A stretch of 64,000 nt of DNA from an uncultured Ruminococcus sp. (GCA_902776375.1 CACYPV010000006.1:893-64892); one strand, 5' to 3'. Positions 7,217 to 63,780 are shown, counted from the stretch's first letter. The notes: generated by a model from the letters alone, not told the origin. Numbers and translations are program-made.

Positions 7217-7431
7217 AGTGAATGATTAATAATGAATAGTGAATAGTGAATGGCGGGCTCTGCCCGCACCCGATTTATATTGGCGCGGCACGATTCGATA
7301 ACGCGGCACATGCGCTTCGCGCAGGAAGCTTTTTCGCTCAGCACGCATTATTACAAATCCGGAGCGAAGCGACCATTCACTATGCACTATGCACCATTCA
7401 CTATACACTAATATAAAACGGAGTATTAAAC
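7217..7431. repeat. Composite palindromic intergenic element (word arrays flanking a TIR-like core)
   Basis: GTGAATAG-type words (7226-7254) are mirrored by their complement (7375-7412). They flank a core at 7255-7374 that begins GGGCTCTGCCCGCACCCGATT and ends AATCCGGAGCGAAGCGACC. The same ends recur at 28344-28516 and 30284-30361. Confidence 0.8.
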
Positions 7432-24518: not shown

Positions 24519-25304
24519 TTAATCGGTTTGAGCGCCTATTTTGCGGAAGCGCATGTATCTTTGCTCGGTGAGCGCTTCGACGGGAAGCGAAAGATTTTTT
24601 TCGAGCGTTCGGCTGATAAGGAGCTTTAAGCTTTCGAACATAGCGGCGTCCTCCGCCTTTGGCTCGCGGATGATACGCTCAACCACGCCTAGGTCGAAAA
24701 GATCCTGCGCGGTCATTTTGAGCGCCTCTGCCGCCTCGGGCGCCTTTGAGCTGTCCTTCCACAGAATGGAGGCGCAGCCCTCGGGAGAGATGACGGAATA
24801 AACTGCGTTTTCCATCATCCAGACCTCGTCGGAAACAGCCAGCGCCAACGCGCCGCCGCTGCCGCCCTCGCCTATCAAGATGGTGAGGATGGGGGTTTTG
24901 AGGGTCATCATTTCCATGAGGTTTTCCGCGATAGCCTGACCCTGACCGCGCTCCTCGGCGCCGATACCCGGGTAGGCTCCGCTGGTGTCAACAAGGCAGA
25001 GCACGGGGCGGCGGAACTTTTCAGCCTGCTTCATAAGGCGCAGCGCCTTGCGGTAGCCCTCGGGCTGTGCCTGACCGAAATTGCGCTCGACGCGCTCGCG
25101 GGTGTTTCTGCCCTTTTCTATGCCTATGACGGTGAGCGGCGTGTCGTAGAGCATGGCAAGCCCCGCGACGATAGCCTTGTCGTCGGAAAACCTTCTGTCG
25201 CCGTGCAGCTCGATAAAGCTGTCGCCGAACATGTGTGAGATATAATCAACAGCGGTGAGCTTTTTGGAGTCGCGCGCCGCCATTACCTTTTCAAAAGCCG
25301 TCAT
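24519..25304 (-). CDS. accA: Acetyl-CoA carboxylase carboxyltransferase subunit alpha
   Basis: Typical AccA core (FGQAQPEGYRKALRLMKQAEKFRRPVLCLVDTSGAYPG). Overlaps accD by 4 nt. Confidence 0.9.
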   Translation of the reverse strand: MTAFEKVMAARDSKKLTAVDYISHMFGDSFIELHGDRRFSDDKAIVAGLAMLYDTPLTVIGIEKGRNTRERVERNFGQAQPEGYRKALRLMKQAEKFRRPVLCLVDTSGAYPGIGAEERGQGQAIAENLMEMMTLKTPILTILIGEGGSGGALALAVSDEVWMMENAVYSVISPEGCASILWKDSSKAPEAAEALKMTAQDLFDLGVVERIIREPKAEDAAMFESLKLLISRTLEKNLSLPVEALTEQRYMRFRKIGAQTD

Positions 25305-26161
25305 TGCGCCGCCTCCCCGTAACCGTGCATTTTAAGCAGCTTTACCACTGTTTTCTTTAACTTGTCGCGGCTTACTACCGCGTCGATAAAGCCCTTTTGC
25401 ATAACGAATTCGGAGGTCTGGAAATCCTTCGGGAGCTTTTGTCGCATGGTCTGCTCGATGACACGCGGACCCGCGAACGCCACAAGGGAGTTGGGCTCGG
25501 CGAGGATTATGTCGCCCTCCATAGCGAACGAAGCCGTAACGCCGCCCGTGGTGGGGTCGGTGAGAACGGTTATGTAGAGCAGCCCCGCGTCGCTGTGACG
25601 CTTGACCGCACCGGAGGTCTTTGCCATTTGCATAAGCGAGAGGATGCCCTCTTGCATGCGTGCGCCGCCCGAAACGGTGCAAACGACGACCGGAAGCCGG
25701 TTTTCGGTGGCGTATTCAAAGGCGCGGGTGATCTTTTCGCCCGTGACGGTGCCCATGCTGCCCATCATGAAGCCGCCCTCCATAACACAGAGGACTGTTT
25801 TGACGCCGCCGATAAGGCACTCGCCGCATATCACCGACTCTTTGCCCTTCTCACGAGCCTTCTCAAGCTTTTTGTCGTAGCCCGGGAAGTCGAGGATATT
25901 GGCGGCGGTGAGGTCGGCGTCGTGCTCGCAGAAGCTGTCGCCGTCGGCAAACAGAGAAATGCGTCGCTTAGCGTCCATGCGGAAGTGGTGGTTGCACTTG
26001 GTACAGACGTTAAGGTTTTCCTCCATGTCGGTGGTGAGGAGCAGGGTGTTGCACTTGGGGCACTTAACCCACATTTCCTCGGGGACGAAGGGTACGTTCT
26101 GCTTAGCGTCGGGCGAGGATTCAAGCTCGTTTTTCGGTTTTACAAAGGAAAAGAAATCCAT
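25301..26161 (-). CDS. accD: Acetyl-CoA carboxylase carboxyltransferase subunit beta
   Basis: N-terminal Zn ribbon CPKC..CTKC and the carboxyltransferase beta core. Confidence 0.9.
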   Translation of the reverse strand: MDFFSFVKPKNELESSPDAKQNVPFVPEEMWVKCPKCNTLLLTTDMEENLNVCTKCNHHFRMDAKRRISLFADGDSFCEHDADLTAANILDFPGYDKKLEKAREKGKESVICGECLIGGVKTVLCVMEGGFMMGSMGTVTGEKITRAFEYATENRLPVVVCTVSGGARMQEGILSLMQMAKTSGAVKRHSDAGLLYITVLTDPTTGGVTASFAMEGDIILAEPNSLVAFAGPRVIEQTMRQKLPKDFQTSEFVMQKGFIDAVVSRDKLKKTVVKLLKMHGYGEAAQ

Positions 26162-26466
26162 AATGACCTCTCATTAGTGGTTAGTGGCTAGTGGTTAGTG
26201 GTTAGTCAGTAATAAGTTATAAGTAAGAAGTTATAAGTAAATTTAGATTAAGCCTTTGTTCATCGCCGAGGGGGATCCTTCGACTATTTCACTACGTGAA
26301 ATTGCCCTTCGGGCACCGCTCAGGATGACAATTTCTGCCTCTCATTGGGGTATCTCTCGACTATTTCCTGTCGGAAATTTTTGCTTCGCAAAACCGCTCG
26401 AGATGACATATATAGGCAACGTTTCTGCTAAATCAACTTTCAACTTTCAATTTTCAACTTTCAATT
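26162..26466. repeat. Composite repeat element inside the acc/fab operon (word arrays plus two tandem module-B copies)
   Basis: GTTAGTGG and AAGTTATAAGTA words at 26172-26240, module B at 26270-26330 and 26347-26408, and TTCAACTTT words at 26432-26466. Confidence 0.85.
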
Positions 26467-27816
26467 CTAAAAACGGTGTTCTTTCTCGAAGTCCTGCATA
26501 AAGTCGGTAGTGTATTCGCCGCTGACAAAGCGGTCGTCGGAAAGTATCTCGGCGAGGAGGTCGCGGTTGATGTCGATTCCGTCCATAGTCAGCTCGGAGA
26601 GCGCCATTTTCATTTTGCGGATAGCCTCGGCACGGCTGCGCGCCTGAACTATCAGCTTGCCTACCATTGAGTCGTAATACGGCGGAACGGTGTAGTCCTG
26701 ATAAACGGCGGTGTCAAAGCGCACGAAGCTGCCGCCGGGGGTGTGCAGACGGCGGATCTTGCCGCAGCTGGGGCGGTAGCCCTTTGCGGGATTTTCGGCG
26801 TTTATGCGGCATTCGATAACATTGCCGTGGGTGAAGATGCTGTCCTGAGTGCGCGTGAGCCTTGCGCCCGCGGCGATGCGTATCTGCCACTGGACGATGT
26901 CAAGACCCGTGACCATTTCGGTGACGCCGTGCTCGACCTGCAGGCGGGTGTTCATCTCCATAAAGTAGAAGTTGTTGTCCATGTCGAGCAAAAACTCGAC
27001 CGTGCCGGCGTTGATATAATGCACAGCCTTTGCCGCCTTGACCGCCGCGATCATCATTCTTTTGCGGGTCTTTTCGTCAAGCGCGGGGCTGGGACTTTCC
27101 TCGATCATCTTCTGATTCTTGCGCTGAACGCTGCACTCGCGCTCGCCGAGGCAGATGATGTTGTTGTATTTGTCGCAGAGAAGCTGCATTTCGATGTGCT
27201 TTACGGGGCGGATGAACTTTTCAAGATAGCACGCGCCGTCGCCGAAGGCGGACTTTGCCTCGGCGCTCGCCGCGAGGAACGCCTCCTCGAAGCGGTCGAT
27301 GGAGTCTACGCGGCGGATACCTTTGCCGCCGCCGCCCGAACGCGCCTTGATAAGAAGCGGGAAGCCGATGCGCTCCGCCTCGATCTTTGCCTGTTCAACG
27401 TCCTCGACCACGTCGCAGCCGGGGGTGACCGGAACGCCCGCCGCGCGCATGGTTTTGCGCGCCATGTCCTTGTCGCCGAGCATGGCGATCATGTCGGAGG
27501 TGGGCCCGATGAAGTTGATATTGCACTGCTCGCAGAGCGACACGAACTTGGCGTTCTCGCTGAGCAGACCGTAGCCCGGGTGGATAGCCTGAGCGCCGCT
27601 TTCGACAGCGACGGTGAGGATAGCCGGGATATTGAGATAACTGTCTGCCACGCGGTTGCCGCCCACGCAGTAGCTTTCGTCGGCGAGCTGGACGTGCATG
27701 GCGTCCTTGTCGGCTTTTGAGTAAATAGCCACGGTGGAAATGCCCATTTCGCGGCAGGCGCGGATTATGCGCACGGCGATCTCGCCGCGGTTGGCGATCA
27801 GAATTTTAGAAAACAT
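26467..27816 (-). CDS. accC: Acetyl-CoA carboxylase biotin carboxylase subunit
   Basis: ATP-grasp biotin carboxylase (MFSKILIANRGEIAVRIIRAC..; EMNTRLQVEH). Confidence 0.95.
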   Translation of the reverse strand: MFSKILIANRGEIAVRIIRACREMGISTVAIYSKADKDAMHVQLADESYCVGGNRVADSYLNIPAILTVAVESGAQAIHPGYGLLSENAKFVSLCEQCNINFIGPTSDMIAMLGDKDMARKTMRAAGVPVTPGCDVVEDVEQAKIEAERIGFPLLIKARSGGGGKGIRRVDSIDRFEEAFLAASAEAKSAFGDGACYLEKFIRPVKHIEMQLLCDKYNNIICLGERECSVQRKNQKMIEESPSPALDEKTRKRMMIAAVKAAKAVHYINAGTVEFLLDMDNNFYFMEMNTRLQVEHGVTEMVTGLDIVQWQIRIAAGARLTRTQDSIFTHGNVIECRINAENPAKGYRPSCGKIRRLHTPGGSFVRFDTAVYQDYTVPPYYDSMVGKLIVQARSRAEAIRKMKMALSELTMDGIDINRDLLAEILSDDRFVSGEYTTDFMQDFEKEHRF

Positions 27817-27866
27817 ATAATCACATCCGTTTTAGAGGCTAGAGGCTAGATCAATGCGTAATTGGA
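27817..27866. repeat. Short word-repeat spacer (CTAGAGG and GCGTAAT words) between accC and fabZ
   Basis: TTTAGAGGCTAGAGGCTAGATCAATGCGTAATTGG uses the same words as the large elements. Confidence 0.6.
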
Positions 27867-28292
27867 TCACTGCTTTTCGTTTGGAACAAGCGCGAAGCTG
27901 AGCTCGGCGCTGACGCAGAGCTTGCCGTCGACATAACCCTTTGCGTCGATGAAATAGAACGCGCCGCGGTTTTTGGTGAGGGTGCAGACGCTCTCTAAGG
28001 TATCGCCGGGCTTTACGGGGTTTTTGAATTTGACCTTGTCCATTTTTGTGAAGTAGGGCGTGCAGTCGCTTACCTTGTCGGCAAGCAGGCAGCAACTTGC
28101 CTGACCCATCATTTCGCAGAGAATGACGCCCGGGACGACGGGGTTGCCGGGGAAATGACCCTGCAAAAAGAACTCGTCGCCCTTTATTGTATATTTGCCC
28201 TTAGCGGTGTTCTCGTCGAGCATTTCGGATTCCTCGACGAGCAGCATGTTGTCGCGGTGGGGCAGGATTTTCATGATTTGTTCTTGATTCAT
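27867..28292 (-). CDS. fabZ: 3-hydroxyacyl-ACP dehydratase
   Basis: LPHRDNMLLVEE..GHFPGNPVVPGVILCEMMGQ is the FabZ signature. The start is set at MNQEQI (28292); the longer ORF runs into the repeat element. Confidence 0.9.
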   Translation of the reverse strand: MNQEQIMKILPHRDNMLLVEESEMLDENTAKGKYTIKGDEFFLQGHFPGNPVVPGVILCEMMGQASCCLLADKVSDCTPYFTKMDKVKFKNPVKPGDTLESVCTLTKNRGAFYFIDAKGYVDGKLCVSAELSFALVPNEKQ

Positions 28293-28552
28293 GGTTTGCT
28301 CCTTTGGAGAATTGAAAATGGAGAATGGAAAATGGAAAATTTCGGGTCGCTTCGCTCCGGATTTGTATTGTGTTTGGTTGCAAAACAACGTTTGTGCGCT
28401 GCATTGGGGGATCTCTCGACTATTTCCTGTCGGAAATTTTTGCTTCGCAAAACCGCTCGAGATGACAACTATTGGAAACCGCGCTAATACAAATCAGGTG
28501 TGGGCGGAGCCCGCCCTCAATTGTCAATTGTTCATTGTCAATTGTTAATTGT
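28293..28552. repeat. Composite repeat element (TIR-like core with a nested module-B copy) between fabZ and accB
   Basis: Words at 28303-28340, core at 28344-28516 in inverted orientation with module B at 28406-28467 inside it, and CAATTGTC words at 28518-28552. Confidence 0.85.
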
Positions 28553-28987
28553 TTAGCTTTTCAAGCTAAACAACGGCTGGTCGTATTCTACCAATTCGCC
28601 GTCCTTGGCAAGGACTTCGATGATCTCGCCGTCGGCTTCCGCCTGGATCTCGTTCATGCACTTCATGGCTTCGATAATGCAGACGGTATCGCCCTTCTTG
28701 ACCTTTTTGCCCGCGTAAACGTAGGGGTCGCTGTCGGGCGAGGGGGCGGCGTAGAACACGCCTACGATGGGAGCGTTGATTGTTTTGCCGCTTTCGGCTG
28801 TTGCCGGAGCGGGCTCGGCTGCGGGCGCGGGAGCCGGAGCTGCCTGAACCGTTACGGGAGCGGCTGCGGCTGCGGCGGCGGGCTTTTCGAGGCGGATGGA
28901 GTCGTTTCCGTCTGAGAGCTCAATAGCCTGAAGTCCGCTTTCCTCCAGCACGTTTATGTATTCCTTGAGGGTAGCTATATCTATCAT
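28553..28987 (-). CDS. accB: Acetyl-CoA carboxylase biotin carboxyl carrier protein
   Basis: Ala/Pro linker and biotinyl motif [12 protein letters not shown]. Confidence 0.9.
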
Positions 28988-28999
28988 TACGTTCCTCCG

Positions 29000-30229
29000 T
29001 TATACTTTCTTGAAAATGACGCAAGCGTCGTGACCGCCGAAGCCGAGGTTGGTTGAGATGGCAACGTTTACGTCGCGCTTTTTCGCGGTTTTGGGCGTGT
29101 AGTCGAGGTCAAGCCCTTCGTCGGGCTCGTCGAGATTGATGGTGGGCGGAATGATACCGTCGTCGAGCGCCTTGACCGCCGCGATAGCTTCGATAGCGCC
29201 GGTAGCGCCCAGCATGTGGCCTGTCATGGATTTGGTGGAGCTTATGCTCGCGCTGTACGCCTTGTCGCCCAGCGCCTTCTTGAAGGCGATAGTCTCGGTG
29301 AGGTCGTTGAGGTGGGTGCTGGTGCCGTGGGCGTTGATGTATATTTCTGCGTCGTCGGGGACGTTAGCCTCGTTGAGCGCGATTTTGATTGCCTTTGCCA
29401 GCCCGTCGCCCTCGGGGTCGGGAGCTGTTATATGGTGAGCGTCGCAGGTGTTGCCGTAACCGGCGAACTCGGCGTAGATCTTAGCGCCGCGAGCCTTAGC
29501 GTGCTCGTATTCCTCGAGGATAAGCACGCCCGCGCCCTCGCCCATTACAAAGCCGTCGCGGTCTTTGTCGAAGGGACGTGAAGCGGTTTTGGGGTCGGGA
29601 TTGGTGGAAAGCGCCTTCATGTTTTGGAAGCCCGCAATGGTGAGCCGCTCCACGACCGCCTCGGCGCCGCCCGCGATAACAGCGTCGGCGTAGCCGTCCT
29701 TTACGGCGTGGAATGCCTCGCCGATAGAATTGGTGCCTGTGGCGCACGCGCTCATGACAGAGAGCGTAACGCCCTTGGCGTTGAAGCGGATAGCGGTGTT
29801 TCCGGTGGCGATGTTGCCTATCATCATGGGGATGAAGAAGGGGCTGACCTTGCGCGGACCGCCGTGGTCGAGGCCTAAAGTGTTGTCGACAAAGGTCTGC
29901 AAGCCGCCTATGCCCGCGCCGATATACACGCCGAAGCGGTCTTCGTCGATATGACCGAGGATGCCGCTGTCGTCGACAGCCTGCTGAGCCGCCGCCATGG
30001 CGTACTGGCAGTAAATATCGAGCTTTTTGGCTTCTCGCTTTTCAAAGTAAAGCTCGGGCTGAAAATCCTTTACGGTGCCGGCGATATGAACCTTCAGATC
30101 GGAGGTGTCGAACGCGGTTATCTCGTCGATGCCGCACACGCCGTTTATCATATTATTCCACATAGTCGGGACGTCGTTTCCGACGGGGCTAATCACGCCC
30201 AGACCCGTAACTACAACTCGTCTGCTCAT
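29000..30229 (-). CDS. fabF: Beta-ketoacyl-ACP synthase II
   Basis: MSRRVVVTGLGVISPVGN.., active-site SACATG, and HGTSTHLNDLTE/GHMLGATG motifs. The start is set at 30229; the upstream extension translates the repeat. Confidence 0.95.
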   Translation of the reverse strand: MSRRVVVTGLGVISPVGNDVPTMWNNMINGVCGIDEITAFDTSDLKVHIAGTVKDFQPELYFEKREAKKLDIYCQYAMAAAQQAVDDSGILGHIDEDRFGVYIGAGIGGLQTFVDNTLGLDHGGPRKVSPFFIPMMIGNIATGNTAIRFNAKGVTLSVMSACATGTNSIGEAFHAVKDGYADAVIAGGAEAVVERLTIAGFQNMKALSTNPDPKTASRPFDKDRDGFVMGEGAGVLILEEYEHAKARGAKIYAEFAGYGNTCDAHHITAPDPEGDGLAKAIKIALNEANVPDDAEIYINAHGTSTHLNDLTETIAFKKALGDKAYSASISSTKSMTGHMLGATGAIEAIAAVKALDDGIIPPTINLDEPDEGLDLDYTPKTAKKRDVNVAISTNLGFGGHDACVIFKKV

Positions 30230-30397
30230 GTGATCACTCCATTTCAGTTGACAATTGACGATTGATAATTGACAATTAAGATTGGGCTCTGCCCACACCC
30301 GATTAATATTCGTGCCGTGCGACAAAAACATGCGGCATCATAAATCGGAGCGAAGCGACCCTAAATTGTCCACTGTCCATTATAAATTGTCCATTTA
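30230..30397. repeat. Composite repeat element (GACAATTG words plus a 78-nt TIR-like core) between fabF and fabG
   Basis: Words at 30246-30280 and 30362-30397. Core at 30284-30361: GGGCTCTGCCCACACCCGATT..AATCGGAGCGAAGCGACCC. Confidence 0.85.
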
Positions 30398-31141
30398 TTA
30401 AATAGCAAGTCCGCCGTCTACGCGGATGACCTCGCCCGTTACGTATGCAGCCTCGTCGCTGCAAAGGAAGGCAACGACGTTAGCCACGTCCTCGGGGGTG
30501 CCTATTCTTTTGGCGGGGATCTGCGCCTGCATGGCTTCCTTGATTTTGTCGGAAAGGGCGTTGGTCATGTCGGTGCCGATATAGCCGGGGGCTACGGCGT
30601 TGACGGTGACTCCCCTGCCGGCGAGCTCGCGTGCTACGGACTTTGTAAGGCCGATTATGCCCGCCTTGGAAGCGGAATAGTTAGCCTGACCCGCGTTGCC
30701 GATAAGACCGACGATGGAGGAGGTGCTGACGATCCTGCCGGCGCGCTTTTTCATAAAGTGCTTGTAGGTGTGCTTTATCATATTGAAGGTGCCCTTGAGG
30801 TTGACGTTTATTACCGCGTCAAAGTCCTTTTCGTCCATGTTGAGCACCAGCTTGTCGCGGGTGATGCCCGCGTTGTTTATCAGGAAATCGATACCGCCGA
30901 ATTCCGCGATAACGGTATCGACGACCTTTTTGGACGCCTCAAAATCGGAAACGTCGCAGAAATACTGCTCGACCTTGGTGCCGAAGCTCTTTAATTCCTC
31001 GACGGCGTTTTTGCCCTCGGATTCATCGCCGACGTAAAGAATGGCGATGTTGGCGCCGGCCGCGGCGAGCTTTTTTGCGATAGCGAGTCCGATACCGCGC
31101 GAGCCGCCTGTGATGACGGCAGTTTTGTTTTCGAAATTCAT
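30398..31141 (-). CDS. fabG: 3-oxoacyl-ACP reductase
   Basis: TGGSRGIG, NNAG and YSASKAG motifs, in the usual operon position. Confidence 0.9.
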   Translation of the reverse strand: MNFENKTAVITGGSRGIGLAIAKKLAAAGANIAILYVGDESEGKNAVEELKSFGTKVEQYFCDVSDFEASKKVVDTVIAEFGGIDFLINNAGITRDKLVLNMDEKDFDAVINVNLKGTFNMIKHTYKHFMKKRAGRIVSTSSIVGLIGNAGQANYSASKAGIIGLTKSVARELAGRGVTVNAVAPGYIGTDMTNALSDKIKEAMQAQIPAKRIGTPEDVANVVAFLCSDEAAYVTGEVIRVDGGLAI

Positions 31142-31186: not shown

Positions 31187-32083
31187 CTAATCAAAATTAA
31201 TATCGTCAGGGGTTTCGACCTTGTATGCTTTTACGTCGTCGAAGGTGCGCTTGCACAGGTTTTGCAGGGTCTTGCCCACGCCGATCTCGATAACGGTGTC
31301 TACGCCGTCGGCTTTCATGTTTTCCATTATGGTCTGCCAGCGGACGGGGTTTTCGACCTGCGCCCTGACAAGCTGCTTATAGTCGCCCTCGTAGGGCTTG
31401 GCGGTGAAGTTGGAGTAGATTTTGATTTTAGGTTCGCTGAAATCTACGCCTTGCATGTATTCGGCGAGCCCTGCCGCCGCCTGAGCCATGAACGGAGAGT
31501 GGAAGGCTCCGCTTACGGGCAGAGCCTTTGCCCTGCCGCCCGCCTCTTTGACCGCCTTGCAGAAGGCGTCGCTGTTTTCGACAGTCGTCGCGACGACCGT
31601 TTGAGCGGGGGAATTATAGTTGACGGGATAGGTTTTATCGAAGCCCGCGCAGATCTCCTCGACCTTTTCGGGAGCTATCTTCATAACCGCGACCATTGCG
31701 CCGGGGTTTTCGCGCGCAGCCTTGTCCATGAGCTCGCCGCGCTTGCACACGAGCCTGAACGCGTCCTCGTCGGAGAGCATGCCGGCGAACGCGAGAGCCG
31801 CGATCTCGCCGAGCGAAAAGCCTGCCACGCAGTCGGGCGTAATGCCCTTTTCTACCAACGCGCGCGCCGCCGCAAGATCGACGGTGAACACGCAGGGCTG
31901 GGTGTTCACGGTTTGGGTGAGCTCCTCAGCCGTGCCCTCGAAGCACTGCTTTGAGGTGCCGGGGCGAACGCTGTCCGCCATATCGTAGACCGCCTTGGCA
32001 GCGGGTGAGGCGTCGTACATTGCCTTGCCCATGCCGCTGTACTGGGCGCCCTGTCCTGAAAATACAAATGCTATTTTACCCAT
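31187..32083 (-). CDS. fabD: Malonyl CoA-ACP transacylase
   Basis: FSGQGAQY and GFSLGE active-site motifs. Confidence 0.9.
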   Translation of the reverse strand: MGKIAFVFSGQGAQYSGMGKAMYDASPAAKAVYDMADSVRPGTSKQCFEGTAEELTQTVNTQPCVFTVDLAAARALVEKGITPDCVAGFSLGEIAALAFAGMLSDEDAFRLVCKRGELMDKAARENPGAMVAVMKIAPEKVEEICAGFDKTYPVNYNSPAQTVVATTVENSDAFCKAVKEAGGRAKALPVSGAFHSPFMAQAAAGLAEYMQGVDFSEPKIKIYSNFTAKPYEGDYKQLVRAQVENPVRWQTIMENMKADGVDTVIEIGVGKTLQNLCKRTFDDVKAYKVETPDDINFD

Positions 32084-33021
32084 TTTGTCGCTCCGTTCAG
32101 TACCGCCTCTGCCTCGCCGAACATTTCGGTGATAATCTCGCGTGAGGTCTGCTCGCGGGTCACCATTGAGGCGACCTGTCCGGCCAGCACGCAGCCGTTC
32201 TTGACATCGCCCTCGCGCGCCGCAAGGCGGAGCACGCCGGTAGCCATTTTTTCGAGCTCCTCGTCGGAGTAGTTGGTTGAATCGTATTCAGCCTTGGCGT
32301 ATTCTCTGGTGAATTGGTTGCGGATAGAGCGGACGGGATGACCTAAACGCTTGCCGGTCACGACCGAGTCGATATCCTTCGCCTTTAATACCTTGTCCTT
32401 GTATTCCTGAGCTATGGTACATTCCTTAGCTACCAAAAAGCGCGTGCCGACCTGAACGCCCACCGCGCCCAGCATGAACGCCGCCGCGACCTGTCTGCCG
32501 TCGGCTATGCCGCCCGCGGCGATGACGGGTATCTTTACCGCGTCGACGACCTGGGGAACGAGCGCCATTGTGGTGAGCTCGCCGACGTGACCGCCGCTCT
32601 CTCCCCCTTCGGCTATCAGCGCGAAGGCTCCGAGCTTTTCCATGCGCCTTGCAAGCGCTACGGAGGGGATCACGGGGATGACCTTGATACCTGCGGCTAG
32701 CCATTTTTCCATATATTTGCCGGGGTTGCCCGCGCCCGTGGTGACGACGGGTATACCCTCTTCGATCACAACGTCGGCTACCTCGTCGGCGAAGGGGCTC
32801 ATGAGCATGATGTTTACGCCGAAGGGCTTGTCGGTGAGCTGCTTGCATTTGCGTATCTCGTCACGGAGCTGCTCGCCGTTGGAATTCATGGCGGCTATAA
32901 GCCCCAGACCGCCCGCATTGGAAACGCCTGCGGCGAGCGAGGCGTCGGCTACCCAAGCCATTCCGCCCTGAAAAATCGGGAACTCCAGTCCCAGCGATTG
33001 GTCGATAACTGTCGAAATCAT
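32071..33021 (-). CDS. fabK: Enoyl-ACP reductase II (FMN, nitronate monooxygenase fold)
   Basis: FPIFQGGMAWV and the operon position upstream of fabD. The start is set at MISTVID (33021). Confidence 0.85.
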   Translation of the reverse strand: MISTVIDQSLGLEFPIFQGGMAWVADASLAAGVSNAGGLGLIAAMNSNGEQLRDEIRKCKQLTDKPFGVNIMLMSPFADEVADVVIEEGIPVVTTGAGNPGKYMEKWLAAGIKVIPVIPSVALARRMEKLGAFALIAEGGESGGHVGELTTMALVPQVVDAVKIPVIAAGGIADGRQVAAAFMLGAVGVQVGTRFLVAKECTIAQEYKDKVLKAKDIDSVVTGKRLGHPVRSIRNQFTREYAKAEYDSTNYSDEELEKMATGVLRLAAREGDVKNGCVLAGQVASMVTREQTSREIITEMFGEAEAVLNGATKWVK

Positions 33022-33123
33022 ATGCACTTTCTCCTTTATATTGCGCACGCACAATTTCATTAGTCTTAGCAAAATTTAATCGTATACTCTGCGTTTTACG
33101 CATAGTAGGACATTATCGTTATT

Positions 33124-33224: not shown

Positions 33225-33549
33225 TTACTGCCAGTTGCCGTTGTACCAGCTTGTGATGACATAGGTACCGCCGATTTGAGTATCGAGGTCGGGCGTCTGG
33301 TTGAAGATGTTTCTGGGATCCCAGCTGGGCTGCTGTCCCTTGGGAACTCTTACGAAGAGTATCTTATTGCCGAACTCGCCTGTGAACACATACGCGGTGG
33401 CGTCGCCTGTACCGGAGAGCCATTTGCCTTCGCTGCCTTCGTTCCATGTCCAGGCGTACCAGTCCTGACCCTTGTCGTTATCAACAAAGCTGCCGTTTAC
33501 AAGGGTAACGGTATCGCCGGAGGGCGGATTGGTCGGGTTGGTAGGATTA
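33225..33549 (-). pseudogene. Out-of-frame 3' extension of the amylase gene: P/T/N linker plus a ~95-aa aromatic-rich CBM-like module
   Basis: The frame downstream of the amylase stop reads NNPTNPTNPPSGDTVTLVNGSFVDNDKGQDWYAWTWNEGSEGKWLSG..ILFVRVPKGQQPSWDPRNIFNQTPDL..NGNWQ*. It is separated from the amylase frame by one nucleotide at a G6/C6 run (33552-33557). Confidence 0.6.
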
Positions 33550-36500
33550 TTGGGGGGTGCCTCCGTCATACTGAGTCCAGCCGTTGCGATAAAGCGCATT
33601 GGTGTAGGGGATATCCTCCAAATCGCCGGTGATCTTGCTGTCATTTCCGCCGTCGCGGCTGAAGATGCAGCAGTTGTACTCCTCAAGACAGGTGTACATG
33701 TAGATGTTGCCTCCGACATTAGTCATGGGCTGTCCCGGCCAGCTTGCAGCGCTCTGGTTTGTGCCCTTCTTCCAAACATAGATGTAAGGAGTAGTGGTGT
33801 TGTGACCCGTCGCGTCAAAGTAGATGGTTCTGGTGCCCGCGGGCTGAGTGGGTGTAGTGGGCTGTGTAGGCTGTGTGGGCTGTGTGGGATCGTTGCCGCC
33901 AACGTTTACATAAGTGTTGGTGTAAGCGTGGTTGTCCATTTCAGCGAGGAACATCTGTATATAGGTGGCGTCCTTGATAGCGACCTTGCCGCTCTTGTCT
34001 ACGTCAGCCGCAGTATAAGCGTTGCCTGACAGGGCAATAAGCTCTGCGCAGTGTCTTTGGATCAGAGTAACGTCCTTGATGGTGATGCTTCCGTCAAGGT
34101 TAGCGTCGCCGAGGAGCACCTTGTCGCCGGTATCGGGCTGGGTGGGCTCGGTGGGAGCTTCGGTAGGCGCTTCGGTGGGAGCTTCGGTAGGCGCTTCGGT
34201 GGGTGCTTCGGTAGGCTCCTGAACCTCGGACCAGCTGCCGTTGGAGTAAAGCGCGTTCTGATAAGACGGCATTGTGATATCGCCGGTCTGGTTAGCCTTA
34301 TTGTCGCTGAACACGCACATATTATATGTTGCGGGGAAAGACGCGTAGTAGAGGTTGCCCTCGCCCTTGGTCATTGTGATGCCCGGCCAGGGCTTGTAAG
34401 GGTCATTGGAACCGGATTTCCAGACGTGGATGCAGGGAGTGGAGTAGTTCGCGCTCGAGTTGTCGAAGTAAACCGTGCGCATCGTGCCGGGATCGGGAGG
34501 CTCGGGAGTTTCAACTGTTTCGCCCTCGTAGTTCTTCCAGGTGGTCTTGTTGATGAGGATCTTATCGGTGCCCTCAATGTCGAAGCGGACGCCCTCTGCG
34601 GGATACTGCGCCTGACCGGAGCCGGCGTTGAATACTACAGCGCCCTCGTCGGCGAAGTCCTCGTCGACTTCATAGACGTAAAGACCGGTAGTGCTGTCAA
34701 ATTCCATAGCCTCGCCGGGCCAAGCCTTGATGCTTGAGGCGGAGTCGCCGTCGCCCTTGTAGACATAGATGTTGACGTTTGACCAGTTGTACTGGGTGTT
34801 GTCGAAGTAAACGTACGTAACGGCGCTGGGATCCTTCTTCTTATAAGAGAAGGTCATCTCGGAGGTTTCCACGGCGTTGGTGGCTGTCATGGTGACGTCA
34901 AAGCTGGCGCCGACCTCGATGCCTTCGCCGATCTCGAAGCTCTGTCCGTCAACAACGCGGAAGGGTGTTCCGCCCGCAACGGATACCATTGCGTAGTCCG
35001 CGCCGCGCAGGCTTACGGTTACGGTCATGCTGTCGTAGAAAGCTCTCTTTTCGCTCTTGAGCGACATGTTGATGGTGGACTGCGGTCCCGAGATCAGGAT
35101 AACGCCCTGAGGACCGGAGTTGAAGGTGGCGCAGCCGTTGGTTACGACCGCAGTAGTGCCGTCGTACTCGTTGGTGACGGTCTTGCCGCTCGCGAAGGTG
35201 GAGCCGAGGTTGACTGTGATATTTTGGTTGGCGGGTGCGCCGATGCAGCATACGACCGCGTCGCTTACATCTCCGTCGTCATAGGTACGCGCAAAGGTGT
35301 AGCCGGTAGATCCATTGTAGGCGGAAATAAGACGATGATCGCCCGCGCCGACCGCAACGTGATTGTTGCGGAACTTACCGACCTTTTGCCAGTGAGCAAG
35401 CACGTCGGTGTCGATGCTGTCCCAGTTCATGTCGCTGCGCAGCGAATGTCCGCTGCCGCCGTGGCCGTCGAATGACATGCCCGGTACCGTCGGACGGTTA
35501 GTTTCGTCGCCGTAGAAGGGCTGAACGCCGCCCGGCAAAAGCATGAGCGAGGTGCCCTGCCAGTAAAGGTCTCCGCGCGCAAGGTCGGAGTCGTGAGATG
35601 AGTTATAGGTAAGGACGTTGAAGTTGGGATCGCTGTTGATCCTGTCAGCGTAGTCCTGATAAACATTGTTGATGGAGGTCGGACCGTCAAGGCTTCTGCC
35701 TGAGTAGGAGAAGTTGATCATGGAATCAAAGCCGCCCACGGTGTGGTATTCGCTCTTGCCGGAGCCGTAGTCCCAGCATTCGCCGGTCATCCAGAAGTCT
35801 TCGTCCCAGTCTGCTCCGACGGCGGTGGGATTGTTTCTTCTCCAATTCTGGAGAGCGGTGACGCACTTGGTCTTGAGCTTCTTCCATGAAGCCAGCTCAA
35901 CGTGCTTTGCGGTGTCGCAGCGGAAGCCGTCAACGCCGTAGGTCTCGACCCACTCGGCGAGCCATGTGGTGAGGTAATCGGAAACTGTGCCGCTGCTGCC
36001 GTATTTAGCAATTTTGGTGTTGTAGGTGCCTGCCTTCTGCCATTTTTCCTGCAGGAAGGTAGGAATGGAAACGGAAGCGGTGGACTCGGTGCGGAAGTCG
36101 GGCAGACCGGCCAGGCAGCGGGTGATGTCGTCGCCGCCGTTACCGCCGGTATATCCGGGCAGACCGCTGCGAACCCAGCCGTTGCCCCACCAGCTTCCCC
36201 AGTCGGAAGCGGAGGATTTGTAGTCAATAAAGTCGTGGAAGCCGTCAACGCCGGTCAGCTTATACTTATAGGCGTCAATCGCGGATTTGTCGGTGATGGT
36301 GCCGTAGTTAAACTCCTCCATATCGACGATGTTGTTGTAGCCGGCGTGGTTCATAACGATGTCCATCACGATGCGGATACCGTGAGCGTGCGCGGTGTCT
36401 ACAAGGGTCTTGAACTCAGCCTTGGTGCCGAAGTTGGCGTCGGTTTCGGTGTAGTCCAGCACATAGTAGCCGTGGTAGGAATAGTGGGCAAAGTGACCGT

Positions 36501-36906
36501 CGCCGGAGTCAACATAGCCGTGGATCTGCTCGTAGGGAGCGGAGAGCCAGATGGCGTTTACGCCGAGGTCGTCAAAATAGCCCTCGTTGATTTTCTGGGT
36601 AAGTCCCTTGAAGTCGCCGCCGTGGAAGGTGCCGGGAGCGGTTTGCCAGCCGCTGAGCGGGTTTCCGTTGGCGTCAAGAGCTCTGCCGTATGAGTGGTCG
36701 TTTGAGGTGTCGCCGTTTGCAAAACGGTCGGTCAATAGAAAGTAGACGTTGGCGTTATCCCAAGAGAAATCGTCGGCACTTTCTATTCTGCTGTACCCTG
36801 TCGAAGCAGATTCAACGGTCGCGGCGGATGTTGTGGTGAATCCGACGGCGAGCATTGAAATGAGCATGGCAAAGCACAGCGCGAGTGAAATCGTTTTTTT
36901 CTTCAT
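33547..36906 (-). CDS. Secreted GH13 alpha-amylase with three CBM25/26-like starch-binding modules and an internal dockerin
   Basis: Signal peptide MKKKTISLALCFAMLISMLAVG. GH13 regions DIVMNHAG, GFRCDTAKHV, GECWD and YNSSHDSD. Three Y(F)D..W..(Y/H)VW/VY..(A/P/S)WPGxxMT modules. Dockerin GDANLDGSITIKDVT..ADVDKSGKVAIKDAT. Confidence 0.9.
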   Translation of the reverse strand: MKKKTISLALCFAMLISMLAVGFTTTSAATVESASTGYSRIESADDFSWDNANVYFLLTDRFANGDTSNDHSYGRALDANGNPLSGWQTAPGTFHGGDFKGLTQKINEGYFDDLGVNAIWLSAPYEQIHGYVDSGDGHFAHYSYHGYYVLDYTETDANFGTKAEFKTLVDTAHAHGIRIVMDIVMNHAGYNNIVDMEEFNYGTITDKSAIDAYKYKLTGVDGFHDFIDYKSSASDWGSWWGNGWVRSGLPGYTGGNGGDDITRCLAGLPDFRTESTASVSIPTFLQEKWQKAGTYNTKIAKYGSSGTVSDYLTTWLAEWVETYGVDGFRCDTAKHVELASWKKLKTKCVTALQNWRRNNPTAVGADWDEDFWMTGECWDYGSGKSEYHTVGGFDSMINFSYSGRSLDGPTSINNVYQDYADRINSDPNFNVLTYNSSHDSDLARGDLYWQGTSLMLLPGGVQPFYGDETNRPTVPGMSFDGHGGSGHSLRSDMNWDSIDTDVLAHWQKVGKFRNNHVAVGAGDHRLISAYNGSTGYTFARTYDDGDVSDAVVCCIGAPANQNITVNLGSTFASGKTVTNEYDGTTAVVTNGCATFNSGPQGVILISGPQSTINMSLKSEKRAFYDSMTVTVSLRGADYAMVSVAGGTPFRVVDGQSFEIGEGIEVGASFDVTMTATNAVETSEMTFSYKKKDPSAVTYVYFDNTQYNWSNVNIYVYKGDGDSASSIKAWPGEAMEFDSTTGLYVYEVDEDFADEGAVVFNAGSGQAQYPAEGVRFDIEGTDKILINKTTWKNYEGETVETPEPPDPGTMRTVYFDNSSANYSTPCIHVWKSGSNDPYKPWPGITMTKGEGNLYYASFPATYNMCVFSDNKANQTGDITMPSYQNALYSNGSWSEVQEPTEAPTEAPTEAPTEAPTEAPTEPTQPDTGDKVLLGDANLDGSITIKDVTLIQRHCAELIALSGNAYTAADVDKSGKVAIKDATYIQMFLAEMDNHAYTNTYVNVGGNDPTQPTQPTQPTTPTQPAGTRTIYFDATGHNTTTPYIYVWKKGTNQSAASWPGQPMTNVGGNIYMYTCLEEYNCCIFSRDGGNDSKITGDLEDIPYTNALYRNGWTQYDGGTPQ
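34144..34216. repeat. Tandem 12-nt coding repeat (TEAP linker) in the amylase gene
   Basis: GCTTCGGT(A/G)GG(C/A) repeated about 6 times, encoding (PTEA)n on the minus strand. Confidence 0.7.
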
Positions 36907-37090
36907 TCCAAAACTTCCTTTCTGTAAAAAAACTTCTATTTTTTGCAAATGAAACCGAGCGCTCATTTGCCCAGTTTACATTATAATAATAATAACATGA
37001 ATGTATTTTTTATTCAATATGGAATAGGCTATAGATTTACGGCGATTTTTCAATGATTTTTTGTGTAATTTTTTGCGTTTTTTCACAAAG

Positions 37091-37121
37091 AAAAAGCAGA
37101 CTTCGAAAAGCCTGCTTTTTT
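37091..37121 (-). terminator. Possible terminator between the cohesin/dockerin gene and the amylase gene
   Basis: An imperfect AAAAAGCAG..CTGCTTTTT stem with flanking A/T runs. Confidence 0.45.
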
Positions 37122-37135
37122 GTTCCGGAACGGAA

Positions 37136-42189: not shown

Positions 42190-42526
42190 CAAAAGATTAG
42201 ATGCCAGAGGCTAGATGCCAGAGGCTAGATGCTAGAGGCTGGAAGCTAGAGCAGAAACGTTGCAAAAAAGAAGGCTCCCCTGCGTAAGGGGAGCCTTTCG
42301 TATAGCTAAACGTTTGTGCTTACATCAGTGTTGCGTAGTGACAGCCCTTGCGGCTGTCATTTCGCCGCAGGGCGGCGAATACTCTCATCCGACCAATTCG
42401 CAAAGCGAATTGCCCACCTTCCCCACAAGGGGGAAGGCTTTAACATAGCTAAACGCTTCCGCTAATTCATCTAGCATCTAGCTTCTAGCCTCTAGCTTCT
42501 AGCCTCTAGCTTCTAGCCTCTAGCTT
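42190..42526. repeat. Large composite palindromic element: CTAG-word arms enclosing five short stem-loops
   Basis: The left arm (42196-42253) is complementary to the right arm (42466-42526). Hairpins at 42271-42297, 42339-42359, 42361-42379, 42394-42412 and 42417-42437. Confidence 0.85.
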
Positions 42527-43369
42527 CTAGCCGCCGACCCTACGGCATTTGACGAAGAATCGGTCGAAGTCGCCGCTTGCGGAGGGGGTGCAGGTGAACA
42601 TGGTGAAAAGATCCTCGCCCTCCTTGATGAACGCCGCGGCGGATTCGTTCGGCTTGAAGGTGTTCTTTTCGCTGACCTCGTAGGTCAGAGTTTCCCAAAA
42701 GTTCCTGACGGTTATTCTGTCGCCGATATTCAGGCTGCGCAGGTTGTCGAAGAATATCCTGCCCACATAGCCCGTGTGACCGGCTATGACGGCGTTGGTG
42801 TCGGCGCCGCCTATGGGGAGCGAGGTGAAGGTCATGTGCGCCGCGCCGTAGCTCATGTTTGAGTCGCTGGTGCCGAGATAGATAGGAAGCAGCATGTCGA
42901 TAGAGGGCGCGGAGACGTAGCCGTAAACGCCGTCGTAGATGCCGTAGTCGCGCAGGTCGAGCGCGGACTTGCCGTTGAAGTCGCCGCTGCCGTTGAACTT
43001 GCTGCCCTGAGTCTTTTTAAGATCCTCGTTGTAGGCTATGCTGTCGCGTCTTAGCCTGTCGAGATCGGCTTTGAACAGAACGGGCGCGCTGCTTGTGCGC
43101 TTGCCGCTCTCTTTGTCTACGGCGTAGCCTTCGGAGTCGACCTCGCCGGCTTTGAGCGCGTCGGCGTAGGTCTTTTGGGTTATGCCCGTGCCGGCGTCGC
43201 TGTCCTCGGATATCACATATGTGAGCGTTTTTTCATAGTCCTCGGTTTTGTGGCGCGCCTTCTGCTTTCCTATGTAATTGGAAATCGGCGGGAAAAGCAG
43301 TAAAGCCAAGCCCGCGAGCAGCAGGATCGAGGCGATGATGATAAGGATCAGCTTAGTGCGTTTTTTCAT
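42527..43369 (-). CDS. Sortase (class C-like or pilus-anchoring; no C-terminal TM helix, no DPF lid)
   Basis: N-terminal TM helix with His (VIAGHTG), Cys (TMFTCTP) and Arg (VKCRRV) catalytic motifs. Its TAG stop lies within the first CTAG word of the adjacent repeat. Confidence 0.85.
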   Translation of the reverse strand: MKKRTKLILIIIASILLLAGLALLLFPPISNYIGKQKARHKTEDYEKTLTYVISEDSDAGTGITQKTYADALKAGEVDSEGYAVDKESGKRTSSAPVLFKADLDRLRRDSIAYNEDLKKTQGSKFNGSGDFNGKSALDLRDYGIYDGVYGYVSAPSIDMLLPIYLGTSDSNMSYGAAHMTFTSLPIGGADTNAVIAGHTGYVGRIFFDNLRSLNIGDRITVRNFWETLTYEVSEKNTFKPNESAAAFIKEGEDLFTMFTCTPSASGDFDRFFVKCRRVGG

Positions 43370-43370
43370 A

Positions 43371-44282: not shown

Positions 44283-44390
44283 GTGTTTGATTCCTTTTTT
44301 AGATTCTAGAAGCTAGAGGCTAGAAGCTAGATATAATATATCCTACATTCTTCTAGCATCTAGCTTCTGGCATCTAGCCTCTAAATGCTG
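44283..44390. repeat. CTAG-word hairpin element (arms only, no core) between the pilin and sortase genes
   Basis: CTAGAAGCTAGAGGCTAGAAGCTAG (about 44296-44325) is complementary to CTAGCATCTAGCTTCTGGCATCTAGCCTCTA (about 44352-44385). Confidence 0.75.
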
Positions 44391-44392
44391 TT

Positions 44393-62870: not shown

Positions 62871-63431
62871 ATGGGGATAATTGAACTTATACTGCTATCT
62901 GTCGGGCTTGCGATGGACGCGTTCGCGGTGTCGATCTGCAAGGGGCTGTCGGTCAGAGAGCTCAAGCCTAAGCACGGTTTGATCGCGGGCGCGTACTTCG
63001 GCGGCTTTCAGGCGCTTATGCCGCTTATCGGCTGGCTGCTGGGCAGGCAGTTTGAGGAGCTGATAAAGAGCGTCGACCATTGGATAGCGTTCGGTCTGCT
63101 TGTGCTGATAGGCGCAAACATGATACGCGAGTCGTTCGGCGGCGAGGACGAGCAGAACGCCTCGTTCTCGTTCAAGGCTATGCTGCCGCTGGCGATAGCC
63201 ACGAGCATAGACGCGCTTGCGGTGGGCGTGACCTTCGCGTTTTTGGAGGTAAACATCGTTCTGGCGATCACGCTGATAGGCGTTATCACCTTTGCGATAT
63301 CGGCGGCAGGCGTGAAAATAGGCAATGTTTTCGGCACGAGGTTCAAGTCAAAGGCGGAATTCGCCGGCGGCGTTATTCTTATTTTGCTGGGAATAAAAAT
63401 ACTGGTCGAGCATTTATTCTTCGGAGGATAG
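62871..63431 (+). CDS. mntP: Manganese efflux pump MntP
   Basis: [10 protein letters not shown] and the repeated [10 protein letters not shown] motif; 186 aa with six TM helices. Confidence 0.9.
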
Positions 63432-63780
63432 AAGCTAGATGCTAGAAGCTAGAGGCTAGATGCTAGATAGTTGAGAGTTGAGAGTTGAGAGTGGAGAGTT
63501 GTTTCAAATCTACAATTAACAATCTACAATCTACAGTGAAGGGTCGCTTCGCTCCGATTTGTGTTGCGTTTGGTTTAATGGAAACGCTTTGCGGTTAGCC
63601 GTTGCCTCCTGCTGTCATTCTGAGCGGTGCCGGAGGCAAAATCGCGTTCAGCGATTTAGTCGAAGGATCCCCCTCGGCAATGAACCAAACGCTTCTGCTA
63701 ATACATCTAGCATCTAGCATCTAGCATCTAGCATCTTCACTTTCAACTTTCAATTTTCAATTTTCAACTAAAAAAACGGA
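63432..63780. repeat. Largest composite repeat element: several word families, a half TIR-like core, a long-range stem and module B
   Basis: CTAG words at 63432-63468, GTTGAGAG words at 63469-63500, CAATCTACA words at 63507-63535, GGGTCGCTTCGCTCCGATT at 63541-63559, GCGTTTGGTT/AACCAAACGC stem (63566-63575 / 63683-63692), module B at 63613-63673, CATCTAG words at 63705-63737 and TTCAACTTT words at 63738-63768. Confidence 0.85.

Follow-up and report, generated by a model that had tools for sequence, protein, structure and literature searches.

The gene junctions of the fab/acc operon in this rumen Ruminococcus probably hold small, non-coding, modular mobile repeats of the MITE/BIME type, whose terminal inverted repeats each consist of 7-nt units in tandem. 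We give this reading a probability of roughly 0.6; it places the elements in the heptamer-repeat class of Xanthomonas, Nostoc, and Beggiatoaceae and regards them as selfish or near-neutral passengers. The analysis covered a 64,000-nt stretch of DNA from an uncultured Ruminococcus sp. (hereafter the window) and comparable loci from strains and species.

The operon lies on the minus strand in the order fabK-fabD-fabG-fabF-accB-fabZ-accC-accD-accA, with gene identities backed by Pfam labels on identical contigs. Every sequence and coordinate quoted in the original prediction was reproduced on re-checking, as were its junction lengths (accD/accC 305, accC/fabZ 50, fabZ/accB 260, and fabF/fabG 168 nt). 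Its view of the junctions as insertions into an ancestrally tight operon also holds: R. bromii ATCC 27255 and human-gut relatives carry the same operon with gaps of 8–15, 6–9, and 14 nt and without elements, and one strain (L004) has an empty fabG-fabF site. Comparison of fab operons in relatives revealed independent expansion of differing junctions in rumen lineages. The operon's load consists of three composite elements (El1–El3, in the 305-, 260-, and 168-nt junctions) and one mini-array (Table 1).

Seventeen period-7 arrays were detected in the window, compared with 0.2 in local shuffles; arrays of period 4, 5, 8, 10, 11, or 13 numbered zero in the window. The words of 7 or 8 nt originally described are therefore confirmed for period 7 and not for period 8, the period being strictly 7, often with a superimposed 14-nt super-period. 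All 17 lie between genes or else overlap a stop codon, and many differing unit families coexist in one genome. Copy number of the fabZ-accC array differs by strain in 7-nt steps (2, 4, or 5 units). The window arrays share the traits of heptanucleotide long simple-sequence repeats (SSRs), namely 7-nt head-to-tail units, intergenic placement, and copy-number polymorphism between close strains. Treating the words as repeats was correct, but not as free-standing units: the arrays form the outer arms of larger composite elements, alongside array-only examples (27833–27850, 60563–60588, and 44306–44383).

The elements share one layout, read on either strand: a G/purine-rich, C-poor heptamer array, a core of interchangeable hairpin modules, and a complementary C/pyrimidine-rich, G-poor array. 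They measure 78–345 nt, are non-coding and multi-copy, and lie mainly between co-directional genes, with their arms adjoining the upstream stop codon and the downstream Shine-Dalgarno sequence. Paired arms are reverse-complementary at 5–7 of 7 positions per unit, and the purine-first polarity (RY) was found in 35/35 pairs (26 RY/0 YR in Ruminococcus loci and 9 RY/0 YR in unrelated metagenome contigs), irrespective of whether the units contain stops or have G-quadruplex (G4) potential. That so strict a polarity extends over unrelated unit families and phyla suggests that some constraint beyond "selfish DNA" alone is at work. The inverted array pairs reported to bracket gene blocks were recovered around accB-fabF (28517–28553 versus 30248–30277) and around the two sortases (42468–42531 versus 44306–44331), each with 7/7 unit matches; both pairs consist of arms facing each other from adjacent elements.

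Table 1. Coordinates of the fab/acc junction elements and of sister elements elsewhere in the window
Feature	Position	Strand	Basis or remark
El1, composite element filling the accC-accD junction (305 nt)	26162..26466	-	Identical copy in L001, L002, L005
El1 5' arm (mRNA sense), (AAGTTGA)n, adjoining accC stop codon 26467-26469	26433..26466	-	Purine-rich sense strand
GTCAT...GATC core module copy B, two hairpins inside a closing helix	26347..26407	-	Hairpins and closing helix covary between copies
GTCAT...GATC core module copy A	26271..26329	-	Compensatory differences versus copy B in all three helices
El1 3' arms (mRNA sense), (CTTATAA/CTTCTTA)n then (CCACTAA)n, ending 12 nt before accD start	26174..26240	-	Array detection
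Array-only mini element (CTAGCCT)n, fabZ/accC	27833..27850	-	2 units here; 4 in L003, L006; 5 in L004
El2, composite element filling the accB-fabZ junction (260 nt)	28293..28552	-	Sequence, strain comparison
El2 5' arm (mRNA sense), (CAATTGA/CAATGAA)n, adjoining accB stop	28517..28552	-	Array detection
GTCAT...GATC module in El2, near-identical to El1 copy B	28406..28466	-	Module comparison
GGAGCGAAGCGACC module, then El2 3' arm (TTTTCCA)n, ending 12 nt before fabZ start	28305..28358	-	Module and array detection
El3, 152-nt insertion in fabG/fabF: both arms, small GC hairpin 30284-30294, GGAGCGAAGCGACC module 30347-30360	30245..30396	-	Absent from L004
Target-site duplication AAATGGA	30238..30244, second copy 30390-30396	-	Filled versus empty alleles
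Sister element, recD2-like/mreB: (AGTGAAT)n, GC hairpin, core, GGAGCGAAGCGACC, (ATTCACT)n	7217..7415	+	Fold z about -4 to -5
Sister element between convergent genes: (TAGAGGC)n, four GC hairpins, (GCCTCTA)n	42190..42531	.	Fold z about -15 to -17
Array-only hairpin (CTAGAAG)n, 20-nt loop, (CTTCTAG)n, upstream of sortase gene	44306..44383	-	z about -9
Single array (TAATGCG)n, beginning one base past a stop codon	60563..60588	+	Array detection
Sister element, mntP/sir2: three 5' arrays, GGTCGCTTCGCTCC and GTCAT modules, two 3' arrays	63429..63770	+	z about -7 to -8

Within the window the core modules appear repeatedly, at several sites and either way round, and they are also found in relatives; their depth in a source-like DNA run was 4–5 times gene depth. 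The GGAGCGAAGCGACC module, for example, is also present at 7361, 30347, and 63542, and El2 shares its modules with El3, where they point the other way. The GTCAT...GATC module (~60 nt), an imperfect palindrome conserved together with its flanks, belongs to a widespread structured motif. Searches against Rfam 15 returned no match in the window at gathering score, none in the elements at E ≤ 10, and none at the motif in 18 motif-bearing contigs. At Ruminococcus junctions the module is in sense orientation in 7/7 cases, which hints at an RNA-level role, and it contains two G.U pairs that only the sense RNA could form; no gene-orientation bias was seen for the wider motif.

Evidence for mobility comes from filled and empty alleles. 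The empty fabG-fabF allele of L004 reads TAACAAATGGAGTGATTACATG, and El3, the 152-nt insertion with both arms and the core, is flanked by a 7-nt duplication, AAATGGA. This is one event with one clean empty site, and the duplication could be microhomology instead. Both ends of El3 read CARTTGA... on their respective strands, with termini in phase with the heptamers. Whole elements were swapped between strains at four sites: accB-fabZ (different elements in L004 and L006, where the final accB codons and stop also differ), recD2-mreB (a CTAG-armed element in L088 and L090), spaA-sortase (a GTCAT-module element in L099 in place of the array-only hairpin), and mntP-sir2 (alternative alleles in L102, L103, and L110). 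At mntP-sir2, the 5' arrays of the window element supply the mntP stop codon. Presence/absence and replacement were seen even among strains with identical AccC. Smaller changes include an L004 variant of El1 without one core module, and both L004 and L006 have El1's compound 3' arm at junctions other than this one. Array pairs spaced 0.45–6 kb, examined across about 2 Mb of loci, revealed neither an autonomous element nor a transposase with matching ends. Arm units differ among elements with a common core, which is awkward for a single sequence-specific transposase.

The stop codons of these arrays reflect base composition rather than a special signal. Each frame of every junction does meet a stop, as predicted, and the El1 5' arm has TGA in all three frames. 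A stop does not, however, occur in each word: TGGAAAA at 28305–28340 contains none, and among the class's GC-rich relatives stop-free units are common. Six-frame stop totals of the junctions were not above those of mononucleotide shuffles (z −3.9 to +2.4), and the purine-rich strand carried a stop in 42/53 distinct units against 38.6 expected when each unit's own letters were permuted (P = 0.15). The claim that the words are built to place stops thus fails on the comparison chosen beforehand to refute it, as density does not exceed that expected from composition; for the same reason, the translation-insulator idea is unsupported. An A/G/T-rich strand repeating every 7 nt would be enough to generate the stops.

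The predicted read-through transcription is consistent with metatranscriptomic RNA unitigs that tile gene, element, and gene; these are assembled contigs that may contain DNA and do not reveal where transcripts end, and transcription appears to run through the elements. Inside the fab junctions, no convincing sense-strand intrinsic terminator was found, only a 5-bp stem at 30295–30283. The transcripts are compatible with host-selected RNA elements that act within the polycistronic mRNA as insulators, RNase processing sites, stability hairpins, or protein landing pads (for instance for cold-shock-type proteins, which bind about 7 nt) and set relative fab/acc expression. Such a role would suit the sense orientation and sense-only pairs of the GTCAT module at Ruminococcus junctions, the position of the arms beside stop codons and Shine-Dalgarno sequences, and the unlike arms, the 5' arm being stop-rich and the 3' arm nearly devoid of G (start codons in 7/53 pyrimidine-strand units versus 30/53 purine-strand units). 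Translational regulation has also been proposed for TAACTGA repeats by MacGregor (PMC4679880). We nevertheless consider it doubtful: stop density is unremarkable, neither sense nor antisense strand has a consistent folding advantage, the wider GTCAT motif ignores gene orientation, elements come and go despite identical AccC, and R. bromii and human-gut relatives run the same operon without them.

Immobile long SSRs growing by replication slippage in situ, with cores as unrelated leftovers, would account for the 7-nt steps in copy number and the array-only examples. Heptamers are cited in PMC4679880 as the commonest long SSR class in prokaryotes, and heptamer-favouring slippage is a proposal of Mrazek et al. 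2007. Slippage leaves unexplained the inverted complementary arms, their fixed polarity, the insertion of 152 nt of arms and core with a duplication, and the same arm-plus-module combinations at different loci, and we regard it as improbable. Polarity itself could be a survivorship filter imposed by transcription-coupled surveillance. Rho rut sites are C-rich, G-poor, unstructured RNA. A C-rich, G-poor arm emerging first would remain unpaired during transcription of the core, recruit Rho, and thereby trigger polarity, so that the survivors inside operons would be those elements whose C-rich arm pairs at once with an already made G-rich arm. The unbroken RY count, which parallels the rule reported for Xanthomonas (PMC4692102), agrees with this scheme, as do the location mainly between co-directional genes and the independence of polarity from stops and G4 potential. 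Against it, the arms of El1–El3 show only weak folding (z −0.5 to −2.6), the 7-nt period is left unexplained, and polarity could be no more than an inherited trait if the unit families are related by descent. Nostoc also shows a related strand preference, although cyanobacteria are not known to carry Rho. A surveillance filter has, in our estimate, only a small chance of being the explanation. It is very improbable that the inverted arrays around accB-fabF and the two sortases serve as recombination substrates that invert or mobilise the enclosed blocks in the manner of a composite transposon. The 7/7 match of the facing arms and the oppositely oriented modules of El2 and El3 would allow it, yet gene order and orientation were unchanged wherever neighbouring fab genes could be compared among 86 strain and species loci, the homology spans only about 30–60 nt, and the few common unit families are often shared by neighbouring elements by chance.

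Several known systems resemble the mobile, heptamer-armed repeats proposed here. Rehm et al. 2015 (PMC4692102) describe intergenic G-rich heptamers of Xanthomonas (GGGAATC) and Nostoc (GGGGAYT) whose G-rich strand is sense within ≤50 bp after a stop and antisense within ≤50 bp before a start, and which form convergent pairs, are transcribed, and lack conservation between sister species. The Ruminococcus arrays agree with this account in all these respects, including the dependence of the G-rich strand on position, and likewise have tandem 7-nt units in mostly about 4 or more copies between co-directional genes, some overlapping a stop codon. Compared with the repeats as described there, the Ruminococcus units are A/T/G-rich and mostly unable to form G-quadruplexes (window units such as AAGTTGA, CAATTGA, AGTGAAT, TAGAGGC, and TTAGTGG have no G3 runs), many unit families occur per genome, and the arrays are arms of composites whose cores are modular. 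Ruminococcus also documents insertion accompanied by a 7-nt duplication and the replacement of elements between strains, neither of which was found in the passages of Rehm et al. 2015 that were consulted. Over-represented intergenic 7-nt tandem units of several types per genome, with variable copy number and no assigned function, are shared with the STRR heptanucleotides of heterocystous cyanobacteria (Mazel 1990) and with long SSRs (Mrazek 2007), both as cited in PMC4679880 and PMC4692102. STRRs belong to another phylum, have other unit sequences, and are defined without inverted pairing, arm polarity, or core modules.

TAACTGA direct repeats of marine Beggiatoaceae, some Cyanobacteria, and Bacteroidetes (MacGregor 2015, PMC4679880) similarly form arrays of 2–6 copies a few nucleotides from start codons, in operons that include essential genes, with stop triplets within the unit and a proposed post-transcriptional role. 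They differ in being a single dominant unit, nearly always in direct repeats (one indirect case is reported), and in lying forward-oriented upstream of starts, where Ruminococcus arrays are pyrimidine-rich; the flanking-arm architecture of the Ruminococcus elements is not described for them (PMC4679880). With MITEs the elements share a length of 80–350 nt without coding capacity, terminal inverted repeats, a target-site duplication with an empty site (a single event), multi-copy intergenic placement, co-transcription, and presence polymorphic between strains, whereas their terminal repeats are variable heptamer arrays instead of one fixed sequence, and they have no known parent insertion sequence. 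Short hairpin modules in both orientations within transcribed operon spaces recall REP/BIME mosaics and REPINs, and the GTCAT...GATC module is REP-like as an imperfect palindrome with conserved flanks. Its head is GTCAT and not the GTAG type of REP/BIME with RAYT, heptamer arms are not a BIME feature, and, unlike species-specific REPs, the module is conserved across very different communities.

We envisage that the mobile repeats integrate, or are retained, in the gap of a few bases that separates a stop codon from the ribosome-binding site downstream. They would be tolerated there because the upstream stop and downstream Shine-Dalgarno sequence are kept, any stray translation stops within a few codons in the C-poor leading arm, and the element contains no sense-strand terminator, leaving the operon transcribed throughout. 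A mobilising enzyme making 7-nt staggered cuts may underlie array growth. The elements would be selfish or near-neutral passengers and no device of the fab operon. The heptamer repeat class is already known yet little understood; here it occurs in the Ruminococcus fab operon as the arms of composite elements.

The four junctions of the fab/acc operon named in the original prediction measure 305, 50, 260 and 168 nt, as it had reported, and every sequence quoted there was recovered at its position. Tandem Repeats Finder and a scan of our own identified 17 period-7 arrays in the window (G+C 52.9%) versus 0.2 in local shuffles, and none of period 4, 5, 8, 10, 11 or 13. The repeated words, initially described as 7 or 8 nt long, are thus strictly heptamers; where two unit variants alternate, as they often do, a period of 14 is seen as well. 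Each of the 17 arrays lies in intergenic sequence or overlaps a stop codon, and a search for tRNA or tmRNA genes gave none. The context genes (window 33547–38029 and 42527–49838; 849–4529 in L004, a strain with an empty fabG–fabF site) are consistent with an amylolytic bacterium of the R. bromii group: they comprise dockerin and CBM26 proteins, a pilus locus with SpaA/FctA-type pilins and two sortases and, in a strain variant, an α-amylase carrying a dockerin.

Genes, heptamer array sites and core modules in the window (gene names from Pfam labels on identical contigs)
Feature	Position	Strand	Remark
fabK	32071–33072	−	
fabD		−	listed between fabK and fabG
fabG	30398–31141	−	
fabF	29000–30229	−	
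accB	28553–28987	−	
fabZ	27867–28292	−	
accC	26467–27816	−	
accD	25301–26161	−	
accA	24519–25304	−	
Further array sites	7217–7415, 42190–42531, 44306–44383, 60563–60588, 63429–63770		outside the fab junctions
Core module			small GC hairpin, then ACCCGATTT
Core module GGAGCGAAGCGACC	7361, 30347; 28345, 63542		last two reverse-complemented
Core module AACGYTTCYGCTAA	26418, 42452, 63688		
Core module, ~60 nt	26271–26329, 26347–26407, 28406–28466, 63614–63672		GTCATYYYGAGCGG, two hairpins, AGTCGARRGATCCCC

Stop codons do occur in every frame of each junction, as first described. Their interpretation as a special design fails, since counts do not exceed the expectation from composition: across eight junction elements, six-frame counts were inside the range expected from shuffles or lower (z −3.9 to +2.4). 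Closing all frames takes 133 nt of mRNA-sense sequence in the accB–fabZ element and 95 nt in the fabG–fabF insertion. A stop is present on the purine-rich strand of 42/53 distinct units, compared with 38.6 expected when each unit's own letters were permuted (P = 0.15); the excess under a pooled-composition control (83% versus 61%) is gone once each unit's own composition is kept. Many units of GC-rich class members contain no stop at all. Enrichment is ruled out at both unit and junction level, the result that the original prediction had named as refuting its stop-codon idea, and the stop codons follow from composition. The non-random features are the 7-nt period and the C-poor/G-poor polarity of the arrays.

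The heptamer arrays form the outer arms of composite elements. On either strand, these run from a purine-rich, C-poor array through a core to a pyrimidine-rich, G-poor array roughly complementary to the first. Pooled, the purine-rich strands contain A 0.36, T 0.28, G 0.30 and C 0.06. Read in mRNA sense, the 5′ arm begins 0–8 nt past the stop codon of the preceding gene, a stop that the arm itself supplies in two cases, and the 3′ arm ends 12–23 nt short of the next start codon, with the Shine-Dalgarno sequence kept. Ruminococcus loci contained 26 clusters with a purine-rich left and pyrimidine-rich right arm (RY), some of them strain copies of one element, and none in reverse (YR); eight clusters scored RR or YY, mostly as same-side neighbouring arrays. 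Clear inverted pairs on unrelated metagenome contigs were likewise RY (9/9). Most units here cannot form quadruplexes, so the polarity rule is independent of G4 potential.

Element cores are mosaics of recurring modules. CTAG-type elements form long, very stable hairpins (fold z −9 to −17), and the fab operon's three large elements have weak folds (z −0.5 to −2.6). RNA-level selection, judged by sense versus antisense folding energy, found no support, as the sense strand was not consistently more stable across elements. A palindrome core in the units (CTAG, CAATTG, GAATTC) was judged unconvincing, with a 4-nt palindrome in ~9/17 by hand tally against roughly 36% expected. A variant architecture was also observed. 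At the fabG–fabF and accB–fabZ junctions of sister species (L009, L035 and L027), AATTCAT words (ATGAATT on the other arm) alternate with 13-nt mini-hairpins of GNRA or UUCG type, each gap between words holding a different one, giving inverted arms with a period of ~20 nt. Another locus, L033, carries very long arrays of up to ~30 units with almost no core between the arms (7603–7802 and 248–522); its units TTAGGAA/TTAGGGG and CCCTAAC resemble eukaryotic telomere repeats.

Strain comparison revealed the elements in motion. The exact AccC protein was present on 18 rumen-metagenome contigs. In L004, the fabG–fabF site is empty (TAACAAATGGAGTGATTACATG); filled alleles carry an additional 152 bases (window 30245–30396) with AAATGGA on each side, recording one insertion event accompanied by a 7-nt duplication. 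The ends of the insertion are in phase with the heptamers (CARTTGA...). Units are gained and lost in steps of 7, the fabZ–accC mini-array containing 2, 4 or 5 units depending on the strain. Whole elements are replaced between strains at the accB–fabZ, recD2–mreB, spaA–sortase and mntP–sir2 junctions, and at some replaced junctions the final codons and stop of the upstream gene differ too. In a comparison of 80 species-level relatives, junctions are tight (8–15, 11–17, 6–9 and 14 nt) in R. bromii ATCC 27255 and human-gut species, whereas lineages from the rumen and other herbivore guts show expansions to 100–500 nt at different junctions, with other unit families: an ancestrally compact operon has been colonised in a lineage-specific manner.

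Alignment of 31 strain contigs to the window yielded no more empty sites; the only finds were replacements, an indel of one gene, a deletion between direct repeats and an unrelated element of 278 nt. A 2.2-kb Ser/Thr kinase gene with RCC1-like repeats (8449–10681; 114-nt tandem repeats at 9967–10675) is absent in several strains with identical MreB. In three strains, a deletion of ~280 nt between two direct repeats, A(A/G)CGGCGGC (60404–60694), fuses a zinc-ribbon ORF (60209–60562) to the next ORF and removes a (TAATGCG)n array. The 278-nt insertion, in the radical-SAM/azlC gap of one strain (L102 1668–1947, versus window 61780–61817), is hairpin-rich, has no heptamer arms and contains CTGTAGGGGTCGGTC...GACCGAACCCTACAG. 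In a source-like DNA run, depth was ~84x for genes versus 370–470x for modules of the accC–accD element, and unitigs broke at the arms. Raw-read DNA runs of another study lacked the organism and matched arrays only, in many other contexts. (TCAACTT)n also turned up in a variety of contexts in other rumen samples without this organism.

The ~60-nt core module, of the form GTCAT-P1-GAGCGG ... AGTCGA-P1′-GATC, adjoins window arrays, and a pattern search matched at least 120 metagenome contigs. Among the matches listed, the communities were soil or peat (~60% G+C) and gut (50–55% G+C), and one contig carries Acido-Lenti-1 RNA. For the closing helix's two free pairs, 250/256 cases among these matches were Watson-Crick, in four pair combinations, and the variable inner hairpin showed heavy compensatory change; both helices covary and are separated by conserved purine-rich internal loops. 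Rfam 15 gave no match to the elements or the module at gathering score or permissive thresholds, and searching the literature for the exact motif string returned chance primer matches only. The GTCAT module is conserved, structured, widespread across communities and missing from RNA family databases. Among the matches listed, its orientation relative to genes is unbiased in metagenome contigs, which makes the module REP-like. In Ruminococcus, 7/7 independent junction copies are sense (binomial P about 0.016, our own calculation), and two of its G·U pairs are possible in sense RNA only. Listed contigs fetched solely for this motif contained 98 period-7 versus 10 period-8 arrays in 749 kb, and an array lay within 200 nt of 17/128 listed motifs versus 4.7% of random positions. 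The 5′ half of the module is tandemly triplicated at one recD2–mreB junction (L088 2739–3001) and only a 3′ fragment is left at another (L090); internal duplication and deletion therefore happen within cores.

The operon is flanked by terminators, with a promoter-like site upstream of fabK (33152–33124), and no terminators of note were found on the sense strand inside the fab junctions. Cattle and sheep rumen metatranscriptome unitigs (97–100% identity) tile accD–accC and fabZ–accB through their elements, and cross the fabZ–accC junction and both edges of the fabG–fabF insertion. The elements are present in RNA libraries and these unitigs fit read-through; such contigs show neither strand nor transcript ends and can contain DNA. 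Tolerance of the elements may come from the joint preservation of stop codon, Shine-Dalgarno sequence and terminator-free read-through. TTGACA-type arrays yield promoter-like matches, and the end of fabG together with the first arm units of the insertion forms a near-consensus promoter-like TTGCTA-18-TATAAT reading towards fabF (30379–30408, −). A host regulatory role is possible, with little to support it.

The best-supported reading is that the junction repeats are a non-autonomous, modular mobile family whose terminal inverted repeats are the heptamer arrays. About 2 Mb of loci contained no transposase or other candidate parent element between matching arms; distant matching arms there enclosed host genes only. 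As duplication length equals unit length, the 7-nt stagger of a mobilising enzyme may build the arms; telomerase-like end addition at breaks as the source of arm symmetry is speculation. Selfishness alone is no sufficient explanation for the strict arm polarity. The polarity could result from a filter against exposed C-rich RNA, on which Rho would load, a testable proposal.

Among the long simple repeats of bacteria, heptamer tandem repeats are the commonest; they include STRR, the long SSRs of Mrazek 2007 and TAACTGA repeats (PMC4679880). In Rehm et al. 2015 (PMC4692102), Xanthomonas GGGAATC and Nostoc GGGGAYT place the G-rich strand ≤50 bp after stops (sense) and ≤50 bp before starts (antisense), with 70–75 convergent pairs in Xanthomonas; most of these repeats are transcribed, and they lack conservation between sister species. 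Our arm rule agrees with this positional rule, although those units are G-quadruplex-prone and the present ones mostly lack quadruplex potential. We found no literature on such repeats in Ruminococcus. As far as our searches show, four things appear new: such repeats occur in a Firmicute belonging to the R. bromii group, one polarity is shared by many non-G4 unit families, arms travel together with modular cores, and there is a conserved GTCAT module.

The arm rule is obeyed in a rumen Firmicute and also by contigs from soil and gut that differ greatly in composition. Together with the GTCAT module, it could point to operon-junction mobile elements of one widespread, unrecognised kind that share a mechanism, an extension we regard as rather doubtful. 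A mobilising enzyme might build its own heptamer arms by 7-nt staggered cuts, or co-transcriptional folding and surveillance by Rho or the ribosome might impose a universal constraint. If true, either would unify STRR, GGGAATC, TAACTGA and the present repeats, a known class that has been an unexplained puzzle since 1990. In practice, the repeats break metagenome assemblies and produce spurious small ORFs and altered gene ends. Small mobile elements can carry the arrays as their arms. As a natural experiment the fab locus is unusually clean: in rumen lineages, elements have repeatedly and independently colonised an essential operon that was ancestrally compact, and near-identical strains show empty, filled and replaced alleles.
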